This document shows, piece by piece, positions 8,041 to 31,454 of a stretch of 64,000 bases of DNA (its first letter is position 1; each line of letters opens with the position of its first letter). The position numbers and the translations under genes are program-made. Source of the stretch: a plasmid; the NCBI RefSeq assembly GCF_988243305.1, contig NZ_OZ547137.1. One strand, written 5' to 3'. A model generated the notes under the pieces. That model saw nothing but the letters and a program-made list of their open reading frames with translations, made no database searches and was not told the DNA's origin.

Positions 8041-9033
8041 TTACAGGAATACACAGTTACGTTTACGCCACATCAGGTAGCCGAAGTTTTTCTTTGTGTT
8101 GGGCGGATTTTTTCCCGTCTCCCAGCGCATCACACTGCGCCCGAACGGATGGCACTGTCCGCTGTCCGGATACATATTCACCATCTGATAACGCCAGCGT
8201 TCTTTGGGCAGGATTGGGGACGGATATTCATTACAGACGGCGTTATTTTTCCCGATGGTTTCCATAATCATGCCCTGACGGTGCAGCTTGAATGCCATGC
8301 GTTCACTGACCAGCAGGGAGGACTGCAACGGACTGGACTCATTACTCACCCAGCCATTGAACGGGTACATACTGCCCTGCGAACCGGCACACCAGAACAG
8401 AACATCGAGAGGCATATTAAAGGCACTGGCAATGGCATCTGCTGCGCAGGCCCCCTGTGCTATCGGATTGGCAAAAATGACGGCTTCCGGGTTGAGAATG
8501 GTGGTAAGGCTGCTGTCCGTCCAGGTGGGGTCGATTTCAGAAAGATAAGCGATATCCAGGTCACCACCTTCCAGACAGCCCAGCGATGTGATGATGTTCA
8601 GCCAGTACGTCAGCGGGTATTTGTACCAGTGAACGTGATAGAACGCCCCGTTCACCTGCTTCTCATCCTTTTTCGCCGTTCCCTGTGCCGTTTTACCAAA
8701 AGCCGGCAGGCTGAAGCCCAGGTTCACCATGCATCCCGGTGACCGGGTGACGTCCGTCAGCGCCATCGGCTCCCAGTAACCAATGGCCAGCCCGATACGC
8801 CTGAACAGCGGCGGCGGTGCCGGACAAATCTGAATAGGCATCGACGGGTTCGCCGTGTCGGGGACCTTACCCTGACTGACTTTGATACTGCCCAGCGAGA
8901 GCGGGAAAATACAGCTCCAGCAGATATCCGTGATCGGGTTTACAAAACGCCCCTCACAGGCAGAATCCGCAGACGCTGCAGGGACATGACCGGCGAGAAG
9001 GAATAACATCAGCAGCCACAGTCTTCGCTTCAT
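8041..9033 (-). CDS. traU: TraU, pilus assembly / DNA transfer protein
   Basis: 330-aa ORF with signal peptide; recalled TraU similarity and synteny. Confidence 0.9.
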   Translation of the reverse strand: MKRRLWLLMLFLLAGHVPAASADSACEGRFVNPITDICWSCIFPLSLGSIKVSQGKVPDTANPSMPIQICPAPPPLFRRIGLAIGYWEPMALTDVTRSPGCMVNLGFSLPAFGKTAQGTAKKDEKQVNGAFYHVHWYKYPLTYWLNIITSLGCLEGGDLDIAYLSEIDPTWTDSSLTTILNPEAVIFANPIAQGACAADAIASAFNMPLDVLFWCAGSQGSMYPFNGWVSNESSPLQSSLLVSERMAFKLHRQGMIMETIGKNNAVCNEYPSPILPKERWRYQMVNMYPDSGQCHPFGRSVMRWETGKNPPNTKKNFGYLMWRKRNCVFL

Positions 9034-18531: not shown

Positions 18532-19281
18532 TTAACGCGTATTTATGATACACATAGCCTTCTCGTATAAATAATGAATAAACTTTTTATTGTAGAGTAA
18601 GATGATTAACTCATCTTTATTAGAAACAGAGAAGTAGTCGCATATCAGAGATGCGTGTTTCTTTGATGTGGAGATGGATATGTTTAATATTCTTGCTATA
18701 GCATTATGACTGATTCCGGTGCTATATAAGTAAAATACATCATTTACATATGATGATACAGAAGAATCATCACTCATTCTTCTGATTATATTTCTGATAT
18801 CATCACTGACAATCGTTTTTTGATTATAACTGTCTTTATGACGAACATGAGCAGCATCATAAAATTGCCACAGAATAATATTTCTGTGTCCATTAAGAAA
18901 TGACTGGACAGATATTGTCCAGAATCTGTTCTGAATAAAAACATCCTCTACAAGATTAAGATGCGTATGCTCATTCCTGTATGCTTCCATCTCTGTGACA
19001 GAGATCAATTCATAAAAATCTCTCTGCGACAGAAGCCATTTTTCAGCACTTTGATCTTGTGTAAGAAATGACTCATGAAACAGCGTATTGCAAAAAATAA
19101 ATTTTCCAGTTTCGTCCCTGATACAGGCTGGATTTGGATAATCCTGAATAACTGCCGTCAGATTTTCCAGCAGATCTATTTGACGAGCATGTTTTTGTTG
19201 AATACGATCCATCGGATACATAGGAACCTCCTCACAAAGGATTCTATGGACAGTCGATGCGGGGAGGAGAACTCCCTGCAT
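18532..19281 (-). CDS. traJ: TraJ, tra operon transcriptional activator
   Basis: Low-GC ORF between traM and traY; likely start at MYPMDRIQQK. Confidence 0.7.
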   Translation of the reverse strand: MQGVLLPASTVHRILCEEVPMYPMDRIQQKHARQIDLLENLTAVIQDYPNPACIRDETGKFIFCNTLFHESFLTQDQSAEKWLLSQRDFYELISVTEMEAYRNEHTHLNLVEDVFIQNRFWTISVQSFLNGHRNIILWQFYDAAHVRHKDSYNQKTIVSDDIRNIIRRMSDDSSVSSYVNDVFYLYSTGISHNAIARILNISISTSKKHASLICDYFSVSNKDELIILLYNKKFIHYLYEKAMCIINTR

Positions 19282-19405
19282 CGGCGATTTTCAAATTCAA
19301 ATTTTAACGTGGCATTAACCACGTAATTAATATACTAATTATCTTTCGTACTGTCACCTTTTTAAATCATAAAAACTCTGATATTTGAACGAAGTCAAAT
19401 TTCTT

Positions 19406-19799: not shown

Positions 19800-20150
19800 C
19801 TTTTTTGAACATAAAATAAAGTTAATTTCGGAACACTAAAATTCATAATACAAACAGGGACGCACCGCTAGCAGCGCCCCTAGCGGTATCCTATAAAAAA
19901 ACACACCGCGCCGCTAGCAGCGCCCCTAATATAAAATGATGTTTTTTATAAAAATAGTCAGTACCACCCCTACAAAGCGGTGTCGGCGCGTTGTTGTAGC
20001 CGCGCCGACACCGCTTTTTTAAATATCATAAAGAGAGTAAGAGAAACTAATTTTTCATAACACTCTATTTATAAAGAAAAATCAGCAAAAACTTGTTTTT
20101 GCGTAGTGTGTGGTGCTTTTGGTGGTGAGAACCACCAACCTGTTGAGCCT
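19800..20150. promoter_or_regulatory. oriT: oriT, F-type origin of transfer with nic motif and TraM/TraY/IHF-type repeats
   Basis: GTGTGT/GGTGCTTTTGGTGGTGAGAACCACCAACC at 20106-20140 matches the F nic region as recalled (nic about 20111^20112); two copies of GCTAGCAGCGCCCCTAG (19867, 19912); inverted repeat GGTGTCGGCGCG...CGCGCCGACACC (19977-20015). Confidence 0.75.
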
Positions 20151-20201: not shown

Positions 20202-20712
20202 AATGAAAAAATGGATGTTAGCCATCTGCCTGATGTTTATAAATGAGATCTGCCATGCCACTGATTGCTTTGATCTTGCAGGCCGGGATTACAAAATAGA
20301 TCCTGATTTACTGAGAGCAATATCATGGAAAGAATCCCGTTACCGGGTTAATGCCATCGGTATTAATCCGGTAACGGGATATGGCAGCGGACTGATGCAG
20401 GTAGATTCCCAGCATTTTAACGAACTGGCCCGCTATGGAATTAAGCCGGAACATCTGACAACAGATCCCTGCATGAACATTTATACCGGTGCTTATTATC
20501 TGGCAATAGCCTTTAAAAAATGGGGCGTCTCCTGGGAGGCCGTTGGTGCATACAATGCCGGATTCAGGAAGACCGAACGCCAGAACCAGAGACGTCTTGC
20601 CTACGCATCAGAGGTTTACCGGATTTATACCAGGATAAAAAGCAGTAAAGGTATCCGGATTCCGGTCACGAAGAAATCACTTCCAGAAATTAACAGCGTG
20701 CAGAACAATTAA
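20202..20712 (+). CDS. GeneX/orf169-type lytic transglycosylase
   Basis: 170-aa ORF from [12 protein letters not shown] with signal peptide; first gene after oriT as in F. Confidence 0.8.
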
Positions 20713-20959
20713 TCTTACAGACATTGTCAGATACCGGTTATGCCGCAAAAGCGGCATGAAGGCTACACACAAAAATATCATATGAGTGACAATGCTGACT
20801 GGCCGAAGCCCCGCGAAGCGGGAACCCATCTTATATATACCCGGTAACTGCGCAGCCTCCTGCCAGACCATTTTTCGCGGGCACAATATTTACAGACAAC
20901 CGGAAAGCCGGTTGATGGAATTGAGGTATATCAGACGACACAGCGATGCCGAAGAATGA

Positions 20960-21003
20960 TAATATAAGTAAAGCCCCGAAAAATTTTCGGGGCTTTACTT
21001 ATA
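20960..21003. terminator. Bidirectional intrinsic terminator (long perfect palindrome)
   Basis: AATGATAATATAAGTAAAGCCCCGAAAA / TTTTCGGGGCTTTACTTATATTATCAT between convergent genes. Confidence 0.5.
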
Positions 21004-21006
21004 TTA

Positions 21007-21909
21007 TCATGACTTCCACTTTCTGAACTGTTCGGCAATCACCCATAACGCCTTGTTGATTCTTATATCACCATCAATACCTGTAATGGCTCTTGTCCTG
21101 GTATTTTTCCCGGAGGCACTTCGCCCCGATAATCCACCTTTTATCATATTCTCCTGAACCCGCTGCCAGGTTGTCCAGAGATCGTTCTGTTTATCTTCCC
21201 GACGACGGGGAGTAATTATTTGTTCAGGCGTCACTGGCGTTTTATTTTCATCTTCATACCTGACCATCAGTGCAGCTCTGCCAAATAAATGTTGCTCGTC
21301 ACTGTTAAGATGAATTTCTTTCATCGCCTCCATATTATCAGTGACCTTATCAAAGACACCGAGCACTTCATACGCTCCCTCGATAACCTGCCCGACAATA
21401 TCACCTTTATGTGGAACACGGATTTCGCCAAAATTATTTCCGCACACCAGGCCATTTGTGCAGACAAAACGAAAAATTCCGGGGATCATCTGATAACTGG
21501 ATGAACCATCATGTGAATTAAGCAGGATAATTTCAGGAACTTCCTGCCCGTTAATATGCCCTTCCCTGCGAAGGCGTAACATATGTTTACTGTATTCGCG
21601 GCGTCCCAAATCACGAACCCGACTCTGACAGGCAAAGAATGGCTGGAAACCTTCATCACGTAACTTATTGATGATATTGATTGTTGGAATATACGTATAA
21701 CGTTCACTCCGGGACTCATGTTTATCACCGGAAAATACCGAAGGCACGAACTGCATTAATTCATCATCCGTTAAAGGACGTTCACGACGGATGGAATTAT
21801 ACCGACCAAAACGGGAAGCTAATCGCATAACAGCTACTCCTTTATGAAAGGATAAATTTAATAAAAAATTTTTCCGCTTAATATCATCCCTCCCGATCTC
21901 CATTAACAA
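21007..21909 (-). CDS. Conserved leading-region protein of unknown function (about 300 aa)
   Basis: 300-aa ORF downstream (minus sense) of the first Frpo-like repeat; family not confidently recognised. Confidence 0.5.
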   Translation of the reverse strand: MLMEIGRDDIKRKNFLLNLSFHKGVAVMRLASRFGRYNSIRRERPLTDDELMQFVPSVFSGDKHESRSERYTYIPTINIINKLRDEGFQPFFACQSRVRDLGRREYSKHMLRLRREGHINGQEVPEIILLNSHDGSSSYQMIPGIFRFVCTNGLVCGNNFGEIRVPHKGDIVGQVIEGAYEVLGVFDKVTDNMEAMKEIHLNSDEQHLFGRAALMVRYEDENKTPVTPEQIITPRRREDKQNDLWTTWQRVQENMIKGGLSGRSASGKNTRTRAITGIDGDIRINKALWVIAEQFRKWKS

Positions 21910-22187
21910 GATTGCAACAATCAGGAGGGATATTCATCACATCCGGTCAGCAGATCGCCCGGATATCGAGGCCGGCACGCTTAATCTGACGCAGGAACTG
22001 TTTGAAGTGATCGGCTTCCGCAATGTTGATATGGCGGAACTGCGTATCCACACCCCGGCTGAGCGCGTAGCTATAGCTGAAGGCCATCTTTTCCGGTGTT
22101 TTTTTCCCTCCCGGCAACAAGAATCGTGTACGACGCGGTGTTAACGTGGATATTTCGGGTACTCATCCAGCTTTCTCCTCTCTCTGG

Positions 22188-22720
22188 TTTTCAGCCCCCA
22201 TCATCTGTTGAGTTTCGGGAGCCGCGGTTTTGACGTTTTGCGGGGACCTGCTCTTTGTTCCCTCCGGTATTCACCATCACCTGTTTGAGAACCTTCGCCG
22301 CAAGGGGCATCACTGCCACGGCCTGACGCACCTGTCCTGGGCAGAACGCAAAATTTTTTACCGGGTTTTGGGTAAAAAATTTTGTGGGCTGTTCATTTAC
22401 CCTGGACAGTCAGTGCGGCAGGTTGTGGCTGTATCAGCCCCCGGCGACAGGGGCTTAAACAGGTGAATGGCACCGGACACAACAACGGGCAGGGACCCGC
22501 CGCAACGACGTGAAGCGCGGTTTGCGAAACGGCGTTGCGCCTTACATCCCGGCGGCCTTTTGCCGGGATGCAGGGAGCGCAGGCCACGGCGCGACAGAGG
22601 CGGCGCGACCGGAACGGTCGCTGCAAGCCCGGGGTTTCGCGTCAGGGATGGAAGCCCGCCAGGGGGACGCCCGGAAAAGACACTGCCAGGAGAACAACAA
22701 AACAGACAATAATCAGGGCA
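22188..22720. repeat. Frpo/ssi-like single-strand promoter repeat, copy 1
   Basis: Starts CAGCCCCCATCATCTGTTGAGTTTCGGGAGCCGCGGTTTTGACGTTTTGCGGGGACC; near-identical to copies at 27508 and 30850. Confidence 0.6.
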
Positions 22721-23016
22721 GCAGTAATCAGAGTCAGAACAGGAGGAAAAAGAGAATAATCAAAGAGAAGGTGATGTGATTTCTGACAGGTCATAAACAG
22801 AGAAGGCGGGGGAAAAGAACGGGCGCCGCAGGCGCACGTTCATCCCCGTTCCCGGAGGGAAACGGCCTTCCTGGCAGTCTGGTTGTTCATGCCCGTACAA
22901 TGCCAGCAAGGAGAAAGGGGCCACCGGCGAACCAGCAGCCCCTTTATAAAGGCGCTTCAGTGCAGTCAGACCAGCATCAGCCCTGAAAAGGCGGGCCTGC
23001 GCCCGCCTCCAGGTTG

Positions 23017-23175
23017 CTACTTACCGGATTCGTAAGCCATGAAAGCCGCCACCTCCCTGTGTCCGTCTCTGTAACGAATCTCGCACAGCGATTTTCGTGT
23101 CAGATAAGTGAATATCAACAGTGTGAGACACACGATCAACACACACCAGACAAGGGAACTTCGTGGTAGTTTCAT
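23017..23175 (-). CDS. hok: Hok-family toxin (52 aa) of a hok/sok type I TA system
   Basis: Minus-strand translation gives [52 protein letters not shown]; below the 60-aa track cut-off. Confidence 0.85.
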
Positions 23176-23233
23176 GGCCTTCTTCTCCTTGCGCAAAGCG
23201 CGGTAAGAGGCTATCCTGATGTGGACTAGACAT
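23021..23233 (-). CDS. mok: Mok, overlapping reading frame controlling hok translation
   Basis: 70-aa ORF overlapping hok in another frame and starting upstream. Confidence 0.55.
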
Positions 23234-23250
23234 AGGGATGCCTCGTGGTG
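23176..23250 (+). ncRNA. sok: Predicted Sok antisense RNA region
   Basis: Antisense to the mok start / hok leader; placed by analogy, boundaries approximate. Confidence 0.3.
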
Positions 23251-23454
23251 GTTAATGAAAATTAACTTACTACGGGGCTATCTTCTTTCTGCCACACAAC
23301 ACGGTAACAAACCACCTTCACGTCATGAGGCAGAAAGCCTCAAGCGCCGGGCACATCATAGCCCATATACCTGCACGCTGACCACACTCACTTTTCCTGA
23401 AAATAACCCGCTCATTCAGGCTGTTTACGGGTAATCTGTGTGATTGTTGCCGCA

Positions 23455-24174
23455 TCACGCCGCCTCCCGGAGTTTGTTCGGCACCATCCACCGCTCCATC
23501 TCACGGACAGCGTGACCGGCCTCTCTTGCTGCAAGACTGGCTTCCGCAATAACCTGCCAGAACGGCATATCCTGCCACTGCCAGCGTTCCATTCCGGCCA
23601 GTGACGGGAAACGCTCGCCCCACAGCCAGAACAGGGTTTCCAGGTCATGCTCTGCCACCCGGTCACTCCAGCGTGCATGCCAGCTTCCGACTGTTTCCGG
23701 CGAATGGAATGCCAGTTCGATTTCAGCCTGAGCGACCAGCGCCTGGTACGCACGGGCTTTCTGCTCTGCCTCCCGTGCCTGCTGGCGGCTGTACTTCTGC
23801 ATGACCAGCGCGGATTTATGGCGACTGCGCTCCCTGACGCGGAACCGCACCGACGGAAACAACCGCTCTGCTGCATCACCGGGAAGGGGAAGGAGGCAGA
23901 CCTCGCCCTGTGTTTCAATCAGCACATCGACGGCATACAGCCACTGAAGACGGTTGCCGTGCAGTTCTTCTGCGGTCAGGGACGGCATGAAAAATCGCAG
24001 GTCAGACAGCGATATCCTGCGGCTTCCGTTCAGACAGCGGAAAAACGCCCCCGCATACGGATATTCCGCCAGCGTGTTACCCTGATGGCGGCGTTTTTCT
24101 GTCTCCGCCACCGCCTGCCATGCGGCCTGTTGCTCTGTGCAGAGGGGAACCAGTGCCTGTGAACGTACGCTCAT
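23455..24174 (-). CDS. psiA: PsiA
   Basis: 239-aa ORF immediately downstream of psiB, overlapping its stop. Confidence 0.85.
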
Positions 24175-24608
24175 GCCTGACCTCCTTCCGCCATCAGGAT
24201 ATGGATGATGTCATTAACGCTGTACCCCTGCGCATCCAGTGACGCCGCCAGTGCCAGTGAATGGCTGACGGCTTCCGGTGCAAACCGCCGCTGCACCTGA
24301 ACCACCGCAAACGGCTCACCACCGGCATTCACCAGAACCAGCACCCAGACCTGAGAGACATCGCCCGGTGAACATAACGCCAGGTGAAAACGTTCGTGGG
24401 CAGGCGTGAAACGGACCTGGACGGGGAAAAATCCGCCAAACTCGCTGCCGTACTCGCCGTTCATCGTCCAGTTGTCCGGCGCATCCAGTTCCCGCATCAC
24501 GGCGTGTGTCAGCTCACGACGTTCATCACTTCCGGCAGCCCGGATATCTTCATATTCCTGTGCGCTCATGGTCTGTAATACATTCAGGGTCAGTTCAGTT
24601 TTCATCAC
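24171..24608 (-). CDS. psiB: PsiB, plasmid SOS inhibition protein
   Basis: 145-aa ORF ([26 protein letters not shown]...); classic leading-region position. Confidence 0.9.
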
Positions 24609-24659
24609 AGTATCTCCCTTGCTGCCGCCCCGTCTCCGGCGGGGCGGTGTGGTTGTTCA

Positions 24660-26624
24660 TCAGGCGGCATCAGCCAGGTTATCGGTGCGTTCAGTGGCAT
24701 CTGTCTGTGGATGTGGTGCACACATCCAGCCTGGAACCCAGCGGTTGTCTTTCATATTGTGCTCTGCATGTTCAGCCGCATCACCTTTCTTCATCTTCTC
24801 CGCGTCCCGTGCGGCACCGGACAGCCCTGCCTCATTCAGGGCTGCGATAATCTGCGGCTTTTTCAGGTGTCCGAAGAAGTTTGCTTTTGTCGGCTGCCAC
24901 CAGTCACGCATGTGAAAGCCGATGGCGCTTTCCAGCGAGTCAAGCGGACTGCGTGACGTGTGACCACACTCGCGGGTCTGGACACCGTTAAGACTGCACG
25001 CGGTACAGAAGCTGAGCAGGGATAACAGCACCTCCTGGCTGAGTGACAGGAACGTCGTCATATCCCGTTCCCATCCTTCCGGCAGCAGGGCAGCAAAACG
25101 AGAGTGTTCTGCCATCAGCGCCATGAATGCGGCACCTTCCTTCCCCGACGGTGCATCGCTGGTCAGCGCATAATGCTCACATTCCAGGCGAATTCTGGCG
25201 GGACTACTATGCGCTTTGCTGCCAAACACATTCAGGCAGAGCGTCCATGCCAGCAGTGTCAGGGATTTGTCCGGTTGCTGCATCAGTGCCGCCTGGACTG
25301 CCAGCGTGCGTTCGGAAGACATTTTCGTCAGCAGTGGCAGACTGATTTCCTCCACTGACGCTTTTTCCTGCACCTGTTCCGTGCGGTCAGCGTCGTCAGC
25401 CGCATCATCCTCACTGCGTAACTGCACACCACGCTGGACACATACGTTTCCATAACGCCAGGACACCACCACTCCACCTCCGGCACGCATCTCCGGCGTC
25501 CACGCTCTGACCTTCGCCATGCAGCGCATCAGCTTCATTTCTGCTTCCAGCAGGTCAGATTCCTCACACTGGTTTTCCATCGCGTCGTAACGCGTCATCA
25601 GTTCGTTCAGGCGTTCTTCTTCCGCCTCCGTCAGCACCGCTTCCGGCTCCGGCAGACAGCGGTATGTTCCGGCATCCTCACGGCACTCACCGACTGGCTC
25701 CATGCGCCCGGCGCACCATTCCCAGCCTTCTGCTTCCCGAAGGTGTTCAGCAACAGCCTGGAGTTTTTCCAGCAGGGCGGCATCGAGCGCCACGCAGTCC
25801 ACATAGCCACCCTCGTCGTCGCTGAACAGGTCAGTGCGCAGTTCATCTGGCGAGAAGGCATCAGCCCCCACAAAGCGGAATTTACTGTTCCCCGCCACCG
25901 CCACTTCACTTTCGGTCACCAGACGACGAATGGTCTGCGCTTCCGGTTTACCGCCCCATCCCGACTGGCAGGCGGCTTCAAACACCTGCACCTGACGCGC
26001 GGTGTCGTTCTCCAGCGCCAGCGCCTGACAGTGTTCGGTGGTGATGCGGTCTTCTGCCAGCGCATCGAGGATGACAGGCGCAAGGTCAGCCAGTTTCAGC
26101 ATTCGCTGGACATGGCGGGGTGAATAGCCCAGCAAGTCACCGATTTGTGCAGGTGTTTTGCCTTCCTGCGCCATTGCGCGGAATCCGGCAATCTGTTCGG
26201 CAGGGTGCATATCCCGACGATGACCGTTTTCAGTCATTGATGCGGCAGTCGCCAGTTCCTGCGGGATGACCTTTACGCGGACAGGTCAGTCAGCCGGAAT
26301 GATGCCACGCTCTGCCAGCATGTTGAGTGCTGCCAGTCGGCGACCACCTGCGGCGACACCGTAACGGTCACCAGGCAGGGTATGCACGACCAGATTCTGC
26401 AACAGGCCAACGTCCTTAATGGACTCCGCCAGTTCGCTGACGGACTCTGCGGAATACGGCACCGTGCGCACATTCAGCGGTGATTTAATCAGTGAAGCCA
26501 GCGGCACACTCACTTCCTCCGTCTGCGCCAGCAGGGCAGACAGGACTGTTTCCTGCGTTTTTACAGATTTAAGGCTTGCTTTGCGGGTGGTTTCTGGTTC
26601 ACACTTCGTTACAGGCATAATCAT
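24660..26624 (-). pseudogene. ParB-like nuclease-domain protein interrupted by an in-frame TGA
   Basis: 112-aa (26286-26624) and 525-aa (24660-26237) ORFs are in the same frame, separated by one TGA at 26286-26288; N-terminus has a ParB-type motif (VAAGGRRLAAL). Confidence 0.6.
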
Positions 26625-26676
26625 CCCCTTATAATTGCTTATGTCCTGCCGGACGTTCGCGCGTCCGGCACCTCTC

Positions 26677-26937
26677 TTACTTAAGAATCCCGAAATCCCT
26701 GATGTACCGGTTCATCCAGTACCCGGCACAGTCCTCAAAATTCCAGGAGCGCCAGATCAACGTGCCATCCTGACGGGCAACCAGGCGAAAATGCGTTCCC
26801 TGATCATCCTCGATAAAGACATTCCGGTACTGTGCGGCAACGGCTTCAGCCTGTTCGCGGGTAAAGGAGCCGTCAGGCAGCCCCTGAAATATTCTGAAAT
26901 ATTCGCTCATCCTCATCTCTCCGGTGATGCCCCGCAC
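26677..26937 (-). CDS. Small conserved leading-region protein (86 aa)
   Basis: ORF between ssb and the ParB-like gene. Confidence 0.4.
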
Positions 26938-26965
26938 TGGACGGGGCGGTTGTCACTGTCTTAGT

Positions 26966-27487
26966 TCAGAACGGAATGTCGTCATCGAAGTCATACGCGG
27001 GTTCAGACGGCTGCTGAGGCTCCGGCTGCGCGGCCTTACGTCCACGGCCTTTCGTTTTCGCGCCACCTTTTTTCGTCGCGTCAGCACTCTGTGGCTGCCC
27101 ATTCTGCTGAGGCTTCGGTTGCGCCTGAGCGTTCTGCTGTGGTGCACTCCCCAGCATCTGCATGGTGCCCGTGGTCTTAACAAGAATTTCAGTGACGTAA
27201 CGGGTGATACCGTTATCTTCCCAACTACGGGTACGGAGTTGCCCCTCGATGTAGACCTGCTCGCCCTTGTGCAGATATTCACCGGCCACTTCCGCGAGCT
27301 TGCCGAACAGCACCACGCGATGCCATTCTGTCTGCTCCCGAATCTCCCCCGTCTGTTTGTCACGCCAGCTTTCTGACGTAGCCACCTGCAGGTTTGCCAC
27401 TGCGCCCCCGTTGGGGATGTAACGGACTTCCGGATCATTGCCCAGACGACCGACAAGAATGACCTTGTTAATGCCACGAACTGCCAT
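26966..27487 (-). CDS. ssb: Plasmid single-stranded DNA-binding protein
   Basis: [35 protein letters not shown]-fold N-terminus, Gln/Pro-rich linker, acidic DDDIPF tail. Confidence 0.92.
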
Positions 27488-27507
27488 GATGTATCTCCTT
27501 CTGTTGA

Positions 27508-27962
27508 TGTTTTCAGCCCCCATCATCTGTTGAGTTTCGGGAGCCGCGGTTTTGACGTTTTGCGGGGACCTGCCTTTTGTTCCCTCCGGTATTCACCATC
27601 ACCTGTTTGAGAACCTTCGCCGCAAGGGGCATCACTGCCACGGCCTGACGCACCTGTCCTGGGCAGAACGCAAAATTTTTTACCGGGTTTTGGGTAAAAA
27701 ATTTTGTGGGCTGTTCATTTACCCTGGACAGTCAGTGCGGCAGGTTGTGGCTGTATCAGCCCCCGGCGACAGGGGCTTAAACAGGTGAATGGAACCGGAC
27801 ACAACAACGGGCAGGGACCCGCCGCAACGACGTGAAGCGCGGTTTGCGAAACGGCGTTGCGCCTTACATCCCGGCGTCTTTTTGCCGGGATGCCGGGAGC
27901 GCAGGCCACGGCGCGACAGAGGCGGCGCGACCGGAACGGTCGCTGCAAGCCCGGGGTTTTCA
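27508..27962. repeat. Frpo/ssi-like single-strand promoter repeat, copy 2 (upstream of ssb)
   Basis: About 450 bp matching copies 1 and 3 up to the GGGGCTTAAACAGGTGAATGG...CGCTGCAAGCC block. Confidence 0.6.
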
Positions 27963-28140
27963 CGCATCGGACCGTAGCGACAGCCCGAAACCGCGCCAGC
28001 GGGTTCGGCGGAGACTGGCAGGTGCGCCAGCAGCTGCCTGTCGGAGTCGGGCCTGACGACCGGATGCCGCCAGGCAGCCGGGAGCCGAAGGTGCGCCCGG
28101 CAGACAGGACAACACTGCAGTAGTCAGAATCAGAGCGGCA

Positions 28141-28186
28141 GGAAAAAGAAGAGCAGTAGCAGTAGCAGTAGCAGTAGCAGTAGCAG
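28141..28186. repeat. Hexanucleotide microsatellite (AGCAGT)n
   Basis: About six tandem units read directly from the sequence. Confidence 0.8.
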
Positions 28187-28365
28187 GAACAACAACATCA
28201 TCAGTAACAGACAAATGACAGGTCTGAAAAGACAGAAGCCCCCATCAGAACGTCCGCGTAATGAAAGGGGCGGCGCGTGAGCGCGGCCCCTTTCAGCGCC
28301 ACCGGCGCGCGGTCTTTTCCCTGCGCGGGCAGACGGGCATTTATCCTCCCGCCAGCCCTGTGTCA

Positions 28366-28929
28366 TCAGGCACGCAGACGAATAATCATCGTCGGGACAT
28401 CGGTATAAGCAAACGTGCCGCGCGGCAGCTCCTCGCGGACGTCAGAAAACGGTAACAGCTTCTCCTGCTGGCGCGGCCCGTTCAGACAGACGGCAACCAG
28501 CACGCCACCCGGACGCAACAGGGAAAAAGCCCGCAGGATATGCCGGATATCCTGCCCGTGACTGAACGGCGGATTCATGATAACCCGGCTGTAATACTGC
28601 ACCGGCTGCCATTCCATGAAGTCGCCACACTGAACCCTGACACCGTTAAAATTTTCCCGCAGATACCGGACCAGCCCGCTGTTAATCTCCACCGCATCAC
28701 ACATGGCCTCCGGCGCGGTATCCCGAATCGCCCGCAGTATGGCCCCGGTGCCGGCAGAGGGTTCCAGAATGTGATCACGGTTGCTGATTTCCGCCAGCGT
28801 CACCAGGCGATCACAGACCGGGGCAGGAGTCACAAAAAGCTGAGATTCAGCCCGGATTTCAGCAACCGGCGCGGCGTTATCCAGCCTTGCACGCATCAGC
28901 CGGATACGTTCTCTTAACTGACTGTGCAT
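28366..28929 (-). CDS. Orphan amino-methyltransferase (N6-adenine or N4-cytosine)
   Basis: 187-aa ORF with motif I (EPSAGTGAI) and motif IV (NPPF); no cognate endonuclease adjacent. Confidence 0.7.
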   Translation of the reverse strand: MHSQLRERIRLMRARLDNAAPVAEIRAESQLFVTPAPVCDRLVTLAEISNRDHILEPSAGTGAILRAIRDTAPEAMCDAVEINSGLVRYLRENFNGVRVQCGDFMEWQPVQYYSRVIMNPPFSHGQDIRHILRAFSLLRPGGVLVAVCLNGPRQQEKLLPFSDVREELPRGTFAYTDVPTMIIRLRA

Positions 28930-28975
28930 GTCATTATCTCCGTCATCCCCCGGGGATTTCCCGGGGGGATATACC

Positions 28976-30337
28976 TTATTTCTGTGGGATTTCCGTGATT
29001 TTCATGTCGGTAATATACACATTCACCAGGCGGAAATTATTGTCCATTGTGCGGCGGTAGCGGTATGCCCCGTGGTCTTCTGTCTCTGCCACACTGCGCA
29101 CGGCCTTACAGTCCCGGGGCAGGGCGGCCCACTGCGCCTTTGTCATTTCCCGGAAACCTTCCCCCGGATAGTTGACTACCGGCGGACGCTTCGCGGCCTG
29201 ACTGGCGACGGCAGCCTCTTCTGCCGATGGTGCTTTGTAGTCCGTGATGCGATCGGGCGTCACTTTCATCGTGCCGCTGTACCCGAGAAAACTGTAATTC
29301 GGCGTTGTGACTGAACTCACCGCCCCGTTGCTTTTGTTCACGCGGATGATGGTCAGCCACTCGCCCCGGCTGAAAACCTGTCCGCCCGGCTCAAAATCCT
29401 GTGTCCGGGTAACCACGCCGCCGCTTTCGTCCAGCATGGCACGCTCATAGATCAGGCGGTTCTGATAGTGGTTAACCCAGCGTTGCTGATGCTGAATCTG
29501 CCGTTCATGACAGCGGATCGCAATTTCGCGGGCCTGCTCCGTGGTGATGATGTCATCATCCAGGGCCGACCATAACGATCGACTTCCTTCATACTGGCTT
29601 TTTTCTGCCGGGCGCGGATACGTATCCAGCGGGAAACAGGCGCTGATATGGTCATGACTGCTGATGAGTTTTGCCATATTCAGATCCAGCGATTCAGCCC
29701 GCCACATCGTCAGATATTTCTGCGACTGCGCGATGGTCTTTTCAGCCTTGCGCAAATCAGCTTCGATTTTTTTGATACGACGCCAGCGAACGTCCGGGCG
29801 TTCTTTATACTTCGCGTGAAGCAGTGCCGACCGCGCCCGCTCCTCCCAGTATTCCGCACGTTCAAAGAGCATCACGGCACGTTTCATGCCGTTTTCAATA
29901 CGCTGCGCATCACGACGGGCGCGGCGTTCGCTGTGATGCCCCACAAGAATGGGCTGACCGGGCGGGATCATCGCGGCCAGTCTTTCCACTTCATCAAGTG
30001 CCTGTGCGGATTCACTGGCCCGCTTTCCGCTGTATCCGGTAAACCGCTCCGCCCGTGCTTCCTGACGTTCAGCGAGCGTGCTGTCTTCATCCTCAATCTC
30101 TCCGGCAAGTGAGAGGAGCACGTCTTCCCGGCCCGGTGTCCAGGCTGGCGCGACAAACAGCGCCTGTTTGGGTGCCCAGCGAAAACCGGCATCATGCACT
30201 TTTTTATACGTCTCCGGGTCAAGACGTGACGCGGCATACAGGCGCAGTTTGTTGTCATCCGGTGAGTAGGTCGCGCGGTACATCTGCACAGGGCTGGCGG
30301 CTTCCGGGGCGGTCATGGTGATTGCTGCTAATGTCAT
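28976..30337 (-). CDS. Conserved leading-region protein of unknown function (453 aa)
   Basis: Large ORF with charged coiled-coil middle region; family not confidently assigned. Confidence 0.5.
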   Translation of the reverse strand: MTLAAITMTAPEAASPVQMYRATYSPDDNKLRLYAASRLDPETYKKVHDAGFRWAPKQALFVAPAWTPGREDVLLSLAGEIEDEDSTLAERQEARAERFTGYSGKRASESAQALDEVERLAAMIPPGQPILVGHHSERRARRDAQRIENGMKRAVMLFERAEYWEERARSALLHAKYKERPDVRWRRIKKIEADLRKAEKTIAQSQKYLTMWRAESLDLNMAKLISSHDHISACFPLDTYPRPAEKSQYEGSRSLWSALDDDIITTEQAREIAIRCHERQIQHQQRWVNHYQNRLIYERAMLDESGGVVTRTQDFEPGGQVFSRGEWLTIIRVNKSNGAVSSVTTPNYSFLGYSGTMKVTPDRITDYKAPSAEEAAVASQAAKRPPVVNYPGEGFREMTKAQWAALPRDCKAVRSVAETEDHGAYRYRRTMDNNFRLVNVYITDMKITEIPQK

Positions 30338-30388
30338 AAAATGTTCTCCTTCCGTCTGTTGCCGCCCCTCGCGGGGCGGCTCACCTCA

Positions 30389-30619
30389 TCAGTTAAAAGC
30401 GCGTTTCAGTTCGAGTGTGCGGAGCACCTGCCCGAAGGCCGTGTTTTTCATGGCGGGGATGTGTACACCACGCCCCCGGTGAAAACTCCGGGCTATGTGT
30501 CGCCCGAAGGCTTTCAGCACGGGGTCAATTTCCGGCGCGGGGATGTCTTCGCGTCTGAAACGGGGATGACGGCGGGGCTTTACAGCCGCTGCGGAAGGTG
30601 AAACAATGCTTACAGTCAT
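30389..30619 (-). CDS. Small basic hypothetical protein (76 aa)
   Basis: ORF immediately downstream (minus sense) of Frpo-like copy 3. Confidence 0.3.
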   Translation of the reverse strand: MTVSIVSPSAAAVKPRRHPRFRREDIPAPEIDPVLKAFGRHIARSFHRGRGVHIPAMKNTAFGQVLRTLELKRAFN

Positions 30620-30849
30620 AAATGGATTCCTTATGACAGTTTGGTAACAGTGCCTTAAAGACTGGTTGCACAGTCTCTTCGGCGTGGATTAAGCAGGTCC
30701 CTGACCTGCTTTTTTCATATCTGCGTCTGACGTTCTCCGGTGTATTCCTCCTTCTGTTCCTGCGTTCTCATTACCTGCCAGCAGGATGCTGACAGAACAC
30801 ATAAATGCGTATTGCCGGAGCCTGAAATAAATCCTGATTTTTAAAGAAC

Positions 30850-31380
30850 ATCACCCGTTGAGTTTCGGGAGCCGCGGTTTTGACGTTTCGCGGGAACCTG
30901 CTGCTGTATTCCCTGTGGTATGAACTTCACCCGTTTGAGAACCTTCGCCGCAAGGGGCATCACTGCCACGGCCTGACGCACCTGTCCTGGGCAGAACGCA
31001 AAATTTTTTACCGGTTCTTGGGTAAAAAATTTTGTGGGCTGTTCATTTACCCTGGACAGTCAGTGCGGCAGGTTGTGGCTGTCTATGCCCCCGGCGACAG
31101 GGACTCATACGGGTGTGTGGCACCCGGCAGGCAATGAGCAGGGACCCGCTGCAACGACGTGAAGCGCGGTTTGCGAAACGGCGTTGCGCCTTACATCCCG
31201 GCGTCTTTTTGCCGGGATGCCAGGAGCGCAGGCCACGGCGCGACAGAGGCGACGCGACCGGAACGATCGCTGCAAGCCAGGGTTTCGCGTCAGGGATGGA
31301 AGCCCGCCAGGGCGGAGACAGCTTCGCTGGCTCCGTTCACGACAGCCCGCCCCGCCAGGGGGACGCCCGGGAAAGCCATA
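30850..31380. repeat. Frpo/ssi-like single-strand promoter repeat, copy 3
   Basis: Same core as copies 1 and 2; ends in a purine-rich GAAGAG tract (31385-31430). Confidence 0.6.
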
Positions 31381-31454
31381 AACAGGAGAGGAACGGAAAG
31401 AAGAAGAGGAAGAAGAGGAAGAGTAAGCGCACCGTGAAGGACGTGGAGTAAAAA

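Follow-up and report, generated by a model that had tools for sequence, protein, structure and literature searches.

Three leading-region repeats of an IncF plasmid as probable Frpo/ssi-type single-stranded DNA promoters

Background

The Frpo/ssi promoters of conjugative plasmids are an established route by which SOS-inhibition, SSB and anti-defence genes are expressed before the incoming single strand is copied. In the F plasmid they are represented by Frpo1 (= ssiD, Masai & Arai 1997) and Frpo2 (Couturier et al. 2023), also referred to as ssp1a/ssp1b or 'class 1' single-stranded DNA (ssDNA) promoters. Frpo is active in vitro (Masai & Arai 1997, as cited in PMC9849209), deletion of Frpo1 or Frpo2 abolishes early expression (PMC9849209) and an F Frpo2 fragment drove acrIIA4 from the transferred strand (Samuel et al. 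2024). The start sites of the pESBL class 1 promoters have been mapped by 5'RACE (PMC12672017), and both transcription of the ssDNA by sigma-70 RNA polymerase plus SSB and transient zygotic induction of the genes downstream have been demonstrated for the F and pESBL homologues (PMC9849209, PMC12672017). Two further classes are class 2 (ssp2 or 'Frpo3'), found upstream of ardB/klcA and ardA, and class 3 (ssp3), found upstream of M.EcoGIX. Hairpin promoters of the Frpo/ssi type are already known and well studied, with 13,089 homologues in 6,006 elements (PMC11541004), and are an ordinary feature found in thousands of plasmids.

In this paper, we report the analysis of a 64-kb stretch of plasmid DNA, hereafter the window, which carries three related repeats. 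We conclude that these are very probably paralogous copies of the class 1 Frpo/ssi promoter of F-like and I1-like conjugative plasmids, on the basis of homology to characterised elements, position, strand, fold, covariation and element layout.

Methods

Repeats were identified by repeat finding and by BLAST of the window against itself. ssDNA folds were predicted across the whole window in sliding windows of 300 nt with a 50-nt step. Covariation was assessed on 11 sequences comprising IncF, IncI1, Serratia and metagenomic relatives. The F ssiD/Frpo sequence was obtained from Supplementary file 4 of Samuel et al. (2024). The choice between possible promoter placements was based on conservation and on the boundaries of the published functional construct.

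Results and discussion

Repeats and their position in the leading region

Exactly three direct repeats were present in the 64 kb and none further (Table 1), and the palindrome GCGACCGGAACGGTCGC gave three matches in the window where none was expected. The 451 bp shared by copies 1 and 2 (22187-22637 with 27509-27959) show 98.7% identity, while copies 1 and 3 are 91.2% identical over 467 bp (22199-22664 with 30849-31312) and share an additional block of 39-44 bp (22655-22698 with 31351-31394). Matches to the repeats occur in at least 5000 records of plasmids, and in some of the plasmid records a 'hypothetical protein' is annotated inside the repeat. The Rfam search of 17-37 kb (evalue mode) returned no family covering the repeats and matched only the traJ 5'UTR/FinP, sok and an AS-pc01-like sRNA.

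The nick lies inside TGTGT/GGTGCTTT, between 20111 and 20112 of the plus strand. As the nick motif is on the plus strand, this is the transferred (T) strand, entering 5' to 3' toward higher coordinates. The tra genes are on the minus strand. The repeats occupy the leading region of an IncF plasmid, the side of oriT that is transferred first, and the distance from the nick to the start of the hairpin along the transferred strand is 2.1 kb for copy 1, 7.4 kb for copy 2 and 10.7 kb for copy 3. With the nick on the plus strand and the leading genes on the minus strand, the plus strand serves as template for these genes as well as being the strand transferred.

These results agree with the original prediction in most respects: it had described three near-identical repeats of 450-530 bp with starts at 22188, 27508 and 30850 (correct within 1-13 bp), a plus-strand nick at about 20111 and genes read from the incoming plus strand. 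It had also placed a gene block directly downstream of each copy in minus sense; the blocks are there, but the first ORF had to be corrected for copy 1 (the ygeB-like ORF, then the DUF932 gene) and for copy 3 (the 76-aa ORF, then the 453-aa gene).

Table 1. Positions of the repeats, their predicted structural elements and the neighbouring genes in the window
Feature	Position	Strand	Remarks
traJ 5'UTR/FinP	19215-19324		Rfam
oriT nick region TGTGT/GGTGCTTTTGG	20107-20119	+	nick motif match
Strong terminator	20960-21006		end of gene block 1
Gene block 1	21007-22166	-	ygeB-like ORF and DUF932 gene
DUF932 gene	21007-21828	-	Pfam
ygeB-like ORF, short	starts 22166	-	first ORF after copy 1; broken by 68-nt deletion
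Repeat copy 1	22187-22698	+	whole unit, hairpin and distal tail; F Frpo1 counterpart by position
Copy 1 hairpin	22212-22530	+	123 predicted pairs; apical loop 22363-22370
Copy 1 internal loop, 5' arm	22309-22311	+	ATC, within GGGGCATCACTGCC (22304-22317)
Copy 1 A/T-rich apex stem	22349-22362 with 22371-22384	+	predicted fold
Copy 1 -35-like TGGACA	22403-22408	+	3' arm; 5/6 bases paired; 5/6 match to TTGACA
Copy 1 internal loop, 3' arm	22427-22439	+	expected -10 position; GGCTGTATCAGCC; ATCA 22433-22436 unpaired
Copy 1 distal tail	22531-22698	+	small hairpins 22545-22570 and 22605-22621
Gene block 2	23021-27487	-	ssb to mok/hok
mok/hok	23021-23233	-	sok 23173-23349
psiA	23455-24174	-
psiB	24171-24608	-
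ParB-like gene, split in two	26286-26624 and 24660-26237	-
DUF905-like ORF	26677-26937	-	assigned by position only
ssb	26966-27487	-
Repeat copy 2	27509-27959	+	F Frpo2 counterpart
Copy 2 hairpin	27534-27852	+	loop 27685-27692
Copy 2 internal loop	27631-27633 opposite 27755-27758	+
Copy 2 -35-like TGGACA	27725-27730	+	predicted fold
Copy 2 distal tail	27853-27959	+
Gene block 3	27960-30619	-	76-aa ORF through two small ORFs
Two small ORFs	28130-28366 and 27960-28214	-
SAM-dependent methyltransferase	28366-28929	-
DUF3560 protein, 453 aa	28976-30337	-
76-aa ORF	30389-30619	-	first ORF after copy 3
Repeat copy 3	30837-31430	+	tail to ~31430, where IS66-family element starts
Copy 3 hairpin	30849-31186	+	loop 31013-31020
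Copy 3 internal loop	30954-30967 opposite 31077-31089	+	smaller than in copies 1 and 2
Copy 3 -35-like TGGACA	31053-31058	+	predicted fold
Copy 3 distal tail	31187-31430	+

Single-strand fold, strand preference and covariation

Every copy is predicted to fold on the plus strand into an imperfect hairpin of about 320 nt (319-338 nt) with 123-128 pairs. For copy 1 (22187-22640) the predicted energy was -139.3 kcal/mol against -87.2 +/- 4.8 for shuffled sequences (z = -10.8), and the sliding fold of the whole window (mean -38.7, sd 12.3) fell below -80 kcal/mol only at the three repeats. A GC-rich stretch at 27960-28100, distal of copy 2, was examined as a candidate extra hairpin promoter; its predicted fold was branched, with a z of only -4.0.

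In all 11 homologues the transferred strand exceeded its complement in stability by 7-17 kcal/mol, and in 10 of them it carried more G.T pairs; the minus strand is the less stable because plus-strand G.T pairs turn into C.A mismatches on it. This preference bears on two alternatives to a DNA hairpin as the functional unit, a structured 5' UTR on the minus-sense mRNAs or a small repeat-encoded protein. The complement of copy 1 does fold well too (-127.4 kcal/mol, z = -8.5), and ORFs of 77-89 aa lie inside the repeats, where the annotations mentioned above also fall. However, the minus strand is the less stable one in every homologue, and the ORFs were rejected as genes: they had no NCBIfam match, and the 1-nt indels by which copies and homologues differ rule out a conserved reading frame. 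An RNA or protein function of this kind is thus extremely improbable.

Pairing in the stem has been maintained during divergence. Across the 11 sequences, 84.3% of cells were paired, compared with 40-49% when the partners were slid; two-sided changes occurred at 30 pairs (13-19 in the slid controls) and the covariation score was matched by none of 500 shuffles. Such compensatory changes, which preserve the stem among IncF, IncI1, Serratia and metagenomic relatives, argue against the repeats being functionless recombination scars or mobile-element remnants that are palindromic by chance. That explanation would accommodate the mosaic make-up and concerted evolution of the copies, the hybrid look of F Frpo2 between the copy-2 and copy-3 types and the IS66-family element adjoining copy 3. 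It is nevertheless at odds with a folding advantage that falls consistently on the transferred strand, with the fixed position and orientation relative to oriT and the genes, and with the experimental requirement for close homologues (PMC9849209, PMC11541004), and the chance that it is correct appears negligible.

Similarity to characterised elements

By BLAST, F ssiD/Frpo (D90178) is, over 351/351 nt, 87.6% identical to copy 2 and 87.3% to copy 1, and 80% identical to copy 3 over 335 nt. For the functional F Frpo2 fragment the identity is 98.3% with copy 2, 97.7% with copy 1 and 90.3% with copy 3, and ssi2 and ssi3 of ColIb-P9 share 78-80% identity with the upper hairpin. The original prediction had described the repeats as consistent with Frpo/ssi promoters and proposed that they be folded and compared with F Frpo and ColIb-P9 ssi sequences. 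That reading is supported both by the homology (ssiD 80-88%, Frpo2 90-98%, ssi2/ssi3 78-80%) and by the stable plus-strand hairpin, in which the -35-like hexamer is paired and an internal loop falls where the -10 would be expected.

Candidate promoter elements and proposed mechanism

Below its A/T-rich apex, the stem presents the -35-like TGGACA, then a spacer of about 20 bp that covaries, and then an internal loop at the putative -10. The paired hexamer is identical in all 11 homologues, its helix (helix 9) being invariant, while covariation is seen at 9 of the 18 pairs of the spacer helix; the internal loop begins 20-24 nt past the hexamer in 9 of the 11. In the present copies the 3'-arm spacer measures 20-23 nt rather than 17 owing to a 3-nt bulge. 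None of the hexamers at the -10 position of the three copies is close to TATAAT, the candidates being TATCAG or CTGTAT in copies 1 and 2 and TCTATG or TATGCC in copy 3. The internal loop of copy 3 is smaller than those of copies 1 and 2, and its activity could differ if -10 mismatches are essential, as reported for F. An alternative placement on the 5' arm, TTGAGA-N17-CATCAC reading toward the loop (22285-22313), is possible but disfavoured, since TTGAGA is unconserved in ColIb-P9 and its pairing partner is missing from the functional Frpo2 construct. An in silico consensus scan found no double-strand sigma-70 promoter facing the genes within any repeat, as would fit elements that are silent in duplex form.

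We propose that the plus strand would enter the recipient 5'-first from the nick at 20111/20112 and that some 320 nt of each arriving repeat would snap back into a long imperfect hairpin. The stem would rebuild a duplex sigma-70 promoter from the UP-like A/T-rich apex, the paired TGGACA and the spacer helix of about 20 bp, with the pre-melted internal loop as the putative location of the -10. Host RNA polymerase would initiate at this loop and most likely transcribe from the loop side to the hairpin base, using the 5' arm and then the plus strand past it as template. The resulting early ('zygotic') transcripts would cover ygeB-like/DUF932 (copy 1), ssb-(ParB-like)-psiB-psiA (copy 2) and 76-aa ORF-DUF3560-methyltransferase (copy 3). 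The hairpin RNA may additionally prime complementary-strand synthesis, and once the strand is copied the hairpin would be lost and the promoter silenced. Activity, transient expression and priming are expected here by analogy with the published work on F and ColIb-P9/pESBL.

Priming might also be the main role, the copies being ssi signals whose hairpin RNA primes complementary-strand synthesis in the recipient, with mRNA secondary. F ssiD was first isolated as a single-strand initiation sequence (Masai & Arai 1997, summarised in PMC7690428), its RNA is described as persisting in an RNA-DNA hybrid that is extended by Pol III (Masai & Arai 1997, via PMC7690428), a 2026 preprint reports rifampicin-sensitive early conversion beside ssp1/Frpo promoters in vivo, and homology to ssiD/Frpo fits this function equally. 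A priming role is, however, compatible with promoter function, and all three hairpins stand a short distance upstream of an ORF (46-47 nt from hairpin base to first ORF for copies 1 and 2, about 230 nt for copy 3) with the correct strand polarity, neither of which a pure priming signal needs. We therefore consider it very unlikely that priming is the principal function, and favour the Frpo/ssi promoter assignment.

Distal tail

Beyond the hairpin, each copy continues into a distal tail of 110-240 nt with two small hairpins. In the first, pairing is kept despite sequence change (CATCCCGGC...GCCGGGATG in IncF, CGCCCCGGC...GCCGGGGTG in a metagenomic element and CACACC...GGTGTG in IncI1), and the second is the palindrome GCGACCG-GAA-CGGTCGC. 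A 60-nt block around this palindrome is about 98% identical to ColIb-P9, compared with about 43% for the promoter hairpins. The repeat unit thus exceeds the promoter hairpin; the idea that the tail forms a separate and undescribed module is put forward tentatively and is rather doubtful. Such a tail could act as an insulator or terminator, so that transcripts running on from the zygotic operon upstream would not unwind the hairpin that follows, or it could provide the incoming strand with a signal for priming or protein binding.

Comparison with known systems

The repeats belong to the same sequence family as Frpo1 and Frpo2 of F and share with them the hairpin of about 320 nt on the transferred strand. 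As with F Frpo1, copy 1 lies upstream of ygeB/ygeA(DUF932), and as with F Frpo2, copy 2 lies upstream of ssb...psiA, hok/sok being situated between copies 1 and 2 as in F. In contrast to F, which has two copies, three are present here. F Frpo1 and Frpo2 are reported to be 92% identical (PMC9849209; 83% in the hairpin alignment made here), unlike copies 1 and 2 with their 98.7%, and by its hairpin core copy 1 belongs to the Frpo2 type, not to the Frpo1 type. F Frpo2 itself resembles a product of recombination between the copy-2 and copy-3 types that lacks the DUF3560-methyltransferase interval.

The same arrangement is seen in ssi1, ssi2 and ssi3 of ColIb-P9/R64/pESBL (Bates et al. 1999; Nasim et al. 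2004; Wen et al. 2025), three direct repeats that are dispersed over the leading region, each lying on the transferred strand ahead of an early operon. Common to both are the upper hairpin (A/T apex, TGGAC -35 helix, covarying spacer, internal loop and GGGG/CCCC helix) and a distal tail that is nearly identical in part. The ColIb-P9 elements differ in a whole-hairpin identity of only about 41-44%, in a lower stem unrelated in sequence and in their backbone, which is MOBP/IncI1 rather than MOBF/IncF.

Class 2 and class 3 ssDNA promoters work alike, in that a long GC-rich hairpin of the transferred strand rebuilds a leading-region promoter (PMC12672017), but they have no sequence similarity to class 1. 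None was found in the scanned part of the leading region, where only the class 1 copies fell below -80 kcal/mol, and the methyltransferase gene here is preceded by a class 1 copy (copy 3) and not by a class 3 hairpin.

For the window, the result marks three predicted early operons and confirms the transferred strand, and otherwise adds little to what is established for these promoters. The small new points are comparative: a third class 1 copy predicted to drive a DUF3560-methyltransferase block that is absent from F, the recombinant look of Frpo2, the concerted evolution of the copies and the conservation of the distal tail within the repeats.

Repeats and transferred strand

The window represents an IncF plasmid, and a repeat search of 19-34 kb returned three direct repeats starting at 22187, 27509 and 30837 (copies 1, 2 and 3, respectively). 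In a BLAST comparison of the window with itself, copies 1 and 2 were 98.7% identical over 451 bp and copies 1 and 3 were 91.2% identical over 467 bp, with a separate block of 39-44 bp, and no fourth copy was present in the 64 kb. A 17-nt palindrome within the repeat occurred three times in the window against an expectation of zero. The original prediction of three repeats is thereby confirmed.

A nick had also been predicted at about 20111 of the plus strand, and the nick motif was located there. As this motif lies on the plus strand, the plus strand is the one transferred: its entry into the recipient proceeds toward higher coordinates, and every minus-strand leading gene is read from it as template. 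Direct checks identified psiA, psiB, a ParB-like gene, the methyltransferase gene, the DUF3560 and DUF932 genes, mok/hok and an IS66-family element.

Positions of leading-region features, with the source or structural detail for each
Feature	Position	Strand	Detail
traJ 5'UTR and FinP	19215-19324		Rfam
traM, traJ, traY and following genes		-	annotation of best-matching plasmid record
Nick motif TGTGT/GGTGCTTTTGG	20107-20119	+	nick between 20111 and 20112
SLT transglycosylase, DUF932, hok, psiB, DUF905, ssb, methyltransferase, DUF3560			annotation of best-matching plasmid record
sok	23173-23349		Rfam
ssb	26966-27487		identity checked directly
Core common to copies 1-3	about 22187-22640, 27509-27958, 30837-31285		three-way alignment
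Hairpin, copy 1	22212-22530	+	123 pairs; single long imperfect hairpin (predicted fold)
Hairpin, copy 2	27534-27852	+	124 pairs; single long imperfect hairpin (predicted fold)
Hairpin, copy 3	30849-31186	+	128 pairs; single long imperfect hairpin (predicted fold)
TGGACA, copies 1-3	22403-22408, 27725-27730, 31053-31058		

The first gene after copy 1 is a ygeB homologue (21947-22166, minus strand), which encodes 95 aa in F and in NZ_CP093070; in the window, a 68-nt internal deletion shifts the frame (start 22166, stop 22071-22073). The disruption stands out, since no ygeB deletion mutant of F could be obtained (PMC9849209). The ParB-like gene (24660-26624, minus strand) is represented by two ORFs of 525 and 112 aa, compared with 652 aa in F, and is probably a pseudogene or frameshifted. 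Directly distal to the copy 3 tail lies the IS66-family element (about 31431-34052; TnpA, TnpB and a truncated 325-aa transposase ORF), and the flank of copy 3 up to this insertion matches the F Frpo2 flank.

Homology to characterised single-strand promoters

The window was compared with characterised elements taken from Samuel et al. 2024 (Supplementary file 4). The full 351 nt of F ssiD (GenBank D90178), which is the Frpo of Masai & Arai 1997, aligned with copy 2 at 87.6% and copy 1 at 87.3%, and 335 nt of it with copy 3 at 80%. An F Frpo2 fragment, from which an anti-CRISPR gene was expressed on the transferred strand in that study, matched 27485-27774 at 98.3% identity, copy 1 at 97.7% and copy 3 at 90.3%. 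ColIb-P9 ssi2 and ssi3 shared 78-80% identity with the upper hairpin. In alignments with the F reference plasmid and ColIb-P9, copy 1 sits at the Frpo1 position, upstream of ygeB/DUF932, and copy 2 at the Frpo2 position, upstream of ssb to psiA. The proposed identity of the repeats as Frpo/ssi promoters is supported by these similarities.

A further stretch of the transferred strand, 20707-20894, between the SLT gene and the DUF932 gene terminator, showed 96% identity over 190 nt to another single-strand initiation sequence, F ssiE (D90180).

Hairpin structure and covariation

The stable plus-strand hairpin anticipated for these repeats was recovered. Folded as ssDNA, the plus strand of copy 1 (454 nt) gave -139.3 kcal/mol against -87.2 ± 4.8 for shuffled sequences (z = -10.8) and -127.4 kcal/mol for its complement. 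In a 300-nt sliding fold of the whole window (mean -38.7, sd 12.3), only the three repeats fell below -80 kcal/mol.

Eleven homologues were aligned: the three window copies, F Frpo1 and Frpo2, ColIb ssi1-3, one Serratia element and two insect-metagenome elements. Paired cells amounted to 84.3% against 40-49% when partners were slid by 1-3 columns, a figure inflated by deriving the structure from copy 1; the counts of compensatory change are less affected, with changes on both sides at 30 pairs against 13-19 in the slid controls. None of 500 shuffles reached the observed covariation score, and RNAalifold independently recovered the upper stem with 14 compensatory pairs. The transferred strand was more stable than its complement by 7-17 kcal/mol in all 11 homologues and carried more G.T pairs in 10 of them, a pattern that selection on the recipient-entering DNA strand would produce.

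Distal of copy 2, a GC-rich (0.71) branched ssDNA structure at 27960-28200 (-82.7 kcal/mol, z = -4.0) differs little from the sequence that lies distal of the ssb-upstream ssi in ColIb-P9, and is adjoined by a minus-sense (CTGCTA)n hexamer repeat at about 28150-28190.

Proposed promoter anatomy

Read along the 3' arm from the loop outward, the hairpin begins with an A/T-rich apex stem of 14 bp (GGTAAAAAATTTTG). TGGACA follows in a helix devoid of covariation and matches TTGACA at five of six positions, its first T lying in a T.T mismatch. Beyond it, an 18-pair helix shows compensatory change in nine pairs. An asymmetric internal loop comes next (in copies 1 and 2, ATC on the 5' arm against ATCA on the 3' arm) and leads into a GGGG/CCCC helix. 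In 9 of the 11 homologues this loop starts 20-24 nt beyond the -35-like hexamer. No part of the hairpin other than this series, from the A/T-rich apex to the internal loop, is conserved between the IncF and IncI1 families.

An UP-like tract, a conserved -35, a spacer kept only as structure and a pre-melted -10 would fit a sigma-70 promoter firing from loop to base, for which the 5' arm and then the downstream plus strand would serve as template. The alternative placement, TTGAGA-N17-CATCAC (22285-22313) on the 5' arm and directed toward the loop, is less likely, since ColIb-P9 does not conserve TTGAGA and the pairing partner of this hexamer lies beyond the end of the functional Frpo2 construct. 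For the loop-to-base promoter, no TATAAT-like hexamer occurs at the -10 position; a poor -10 rescued by mismatches would explain an element that is silent as duplex DNA. A consensus scan detected no gene-facing duplex promoter in any repeat.

In copy 3, GCAT is paired with ATGC at the -10 position (30954-30967 with 31077-31089). This pairing leaves a smaller internal loop than that of copies 1 and 2, a difference that could alter promoter strength.

Distal tail and antisense sRNA

The repeat units do not end with the promoter hairpin: each continues distally as a conserved tail in which two small hairpins occur (22531-22698, 27853-27959 and 31187-31430). Within the tail, a 60-nt block that contains the palindrome GCGACCGGAACGGTCGC shares about 98% identity with ColIb-P9, compared with only about 43% for the hairpins; such high identity could also reflect recent exchange between plasmid families.

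Between copy 3 and the 76-aa ORF, an AS-pc01-like antisense sRNA was detected at 30579-30714 on the plus strand (Rfam RF02875; 72 bits, below the gathering score of 79; E = 4e-11), preceded by a sigma-70-like promoter of its own that carries a TG extension (30579-30607) and followed by a terminator (30691-30711). As its template is the complementary strand, it could be made only after single- to double-strand conversion, and it may act to switch off the zygotic transcript.

Comparison with known systems

Elements of this kind are known and have been reported before from the same plasmid family. According to Masai & Arai 1997, as cited in PMC9849209, the Frpo stem-loop presents -35/-10 boxes and is transcribed in vitro by E. 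coli RNA polymerase; as summarised in PMC7690428, the same work had the Frpo RNA priming DNA synthesis, and a preprint of 2026 supports priming by ssp1/Frpo transcripts in vivo. Deletion of Frpo1 or Frpo2 from F abolished early ygeA, ssb and yfjA expression in transconjugants (PMC9849209). In pESBL, 5'RACE mapped the start sites of the three ssi ("class 1") promoters and of three other promoters of hairpin type (PMC12672017). A total of 13,089 Frpo homologues were reported in 6,006 conjugative elements (PMC11541004), and a 2013 paper described three repeats of Frpo type in plasmids of the IncI1 group (PMC3817090).

Of 72,556 plasmid records searched, at least 5000 had a match to the copy 1 region, at one to four places per record among the matches listed, and the junction of copy 3 with its downstream ORF was at least 80% covered in at least 4048 records. 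Judged from these database counts, the three-copy arrangement is ordinary.

On alignment, the copies proved mosaic. In its stem arms copy 1 is similar to F Frpo1, but in the hairpin core it does not differ from copy 2. F Frpo2 (F plasmid 8130-8620) has a gene-proximal arm of copy-2 type (99%) but a distal arm and tail of copy-3 type (97%), and these hybrid arms suggest that F is a product of recombination between copy-2-type and copy-3-type repeats, by which the DUF3560-methyltransferase interval would have been lost. In the window hok/sok lies between copies 1 and 2, an arrangement shared with F, and would penalise loss of the interval between them. The same kind of recombination between repeats has been inferred for IncI1 plasmids (PMC3817090).
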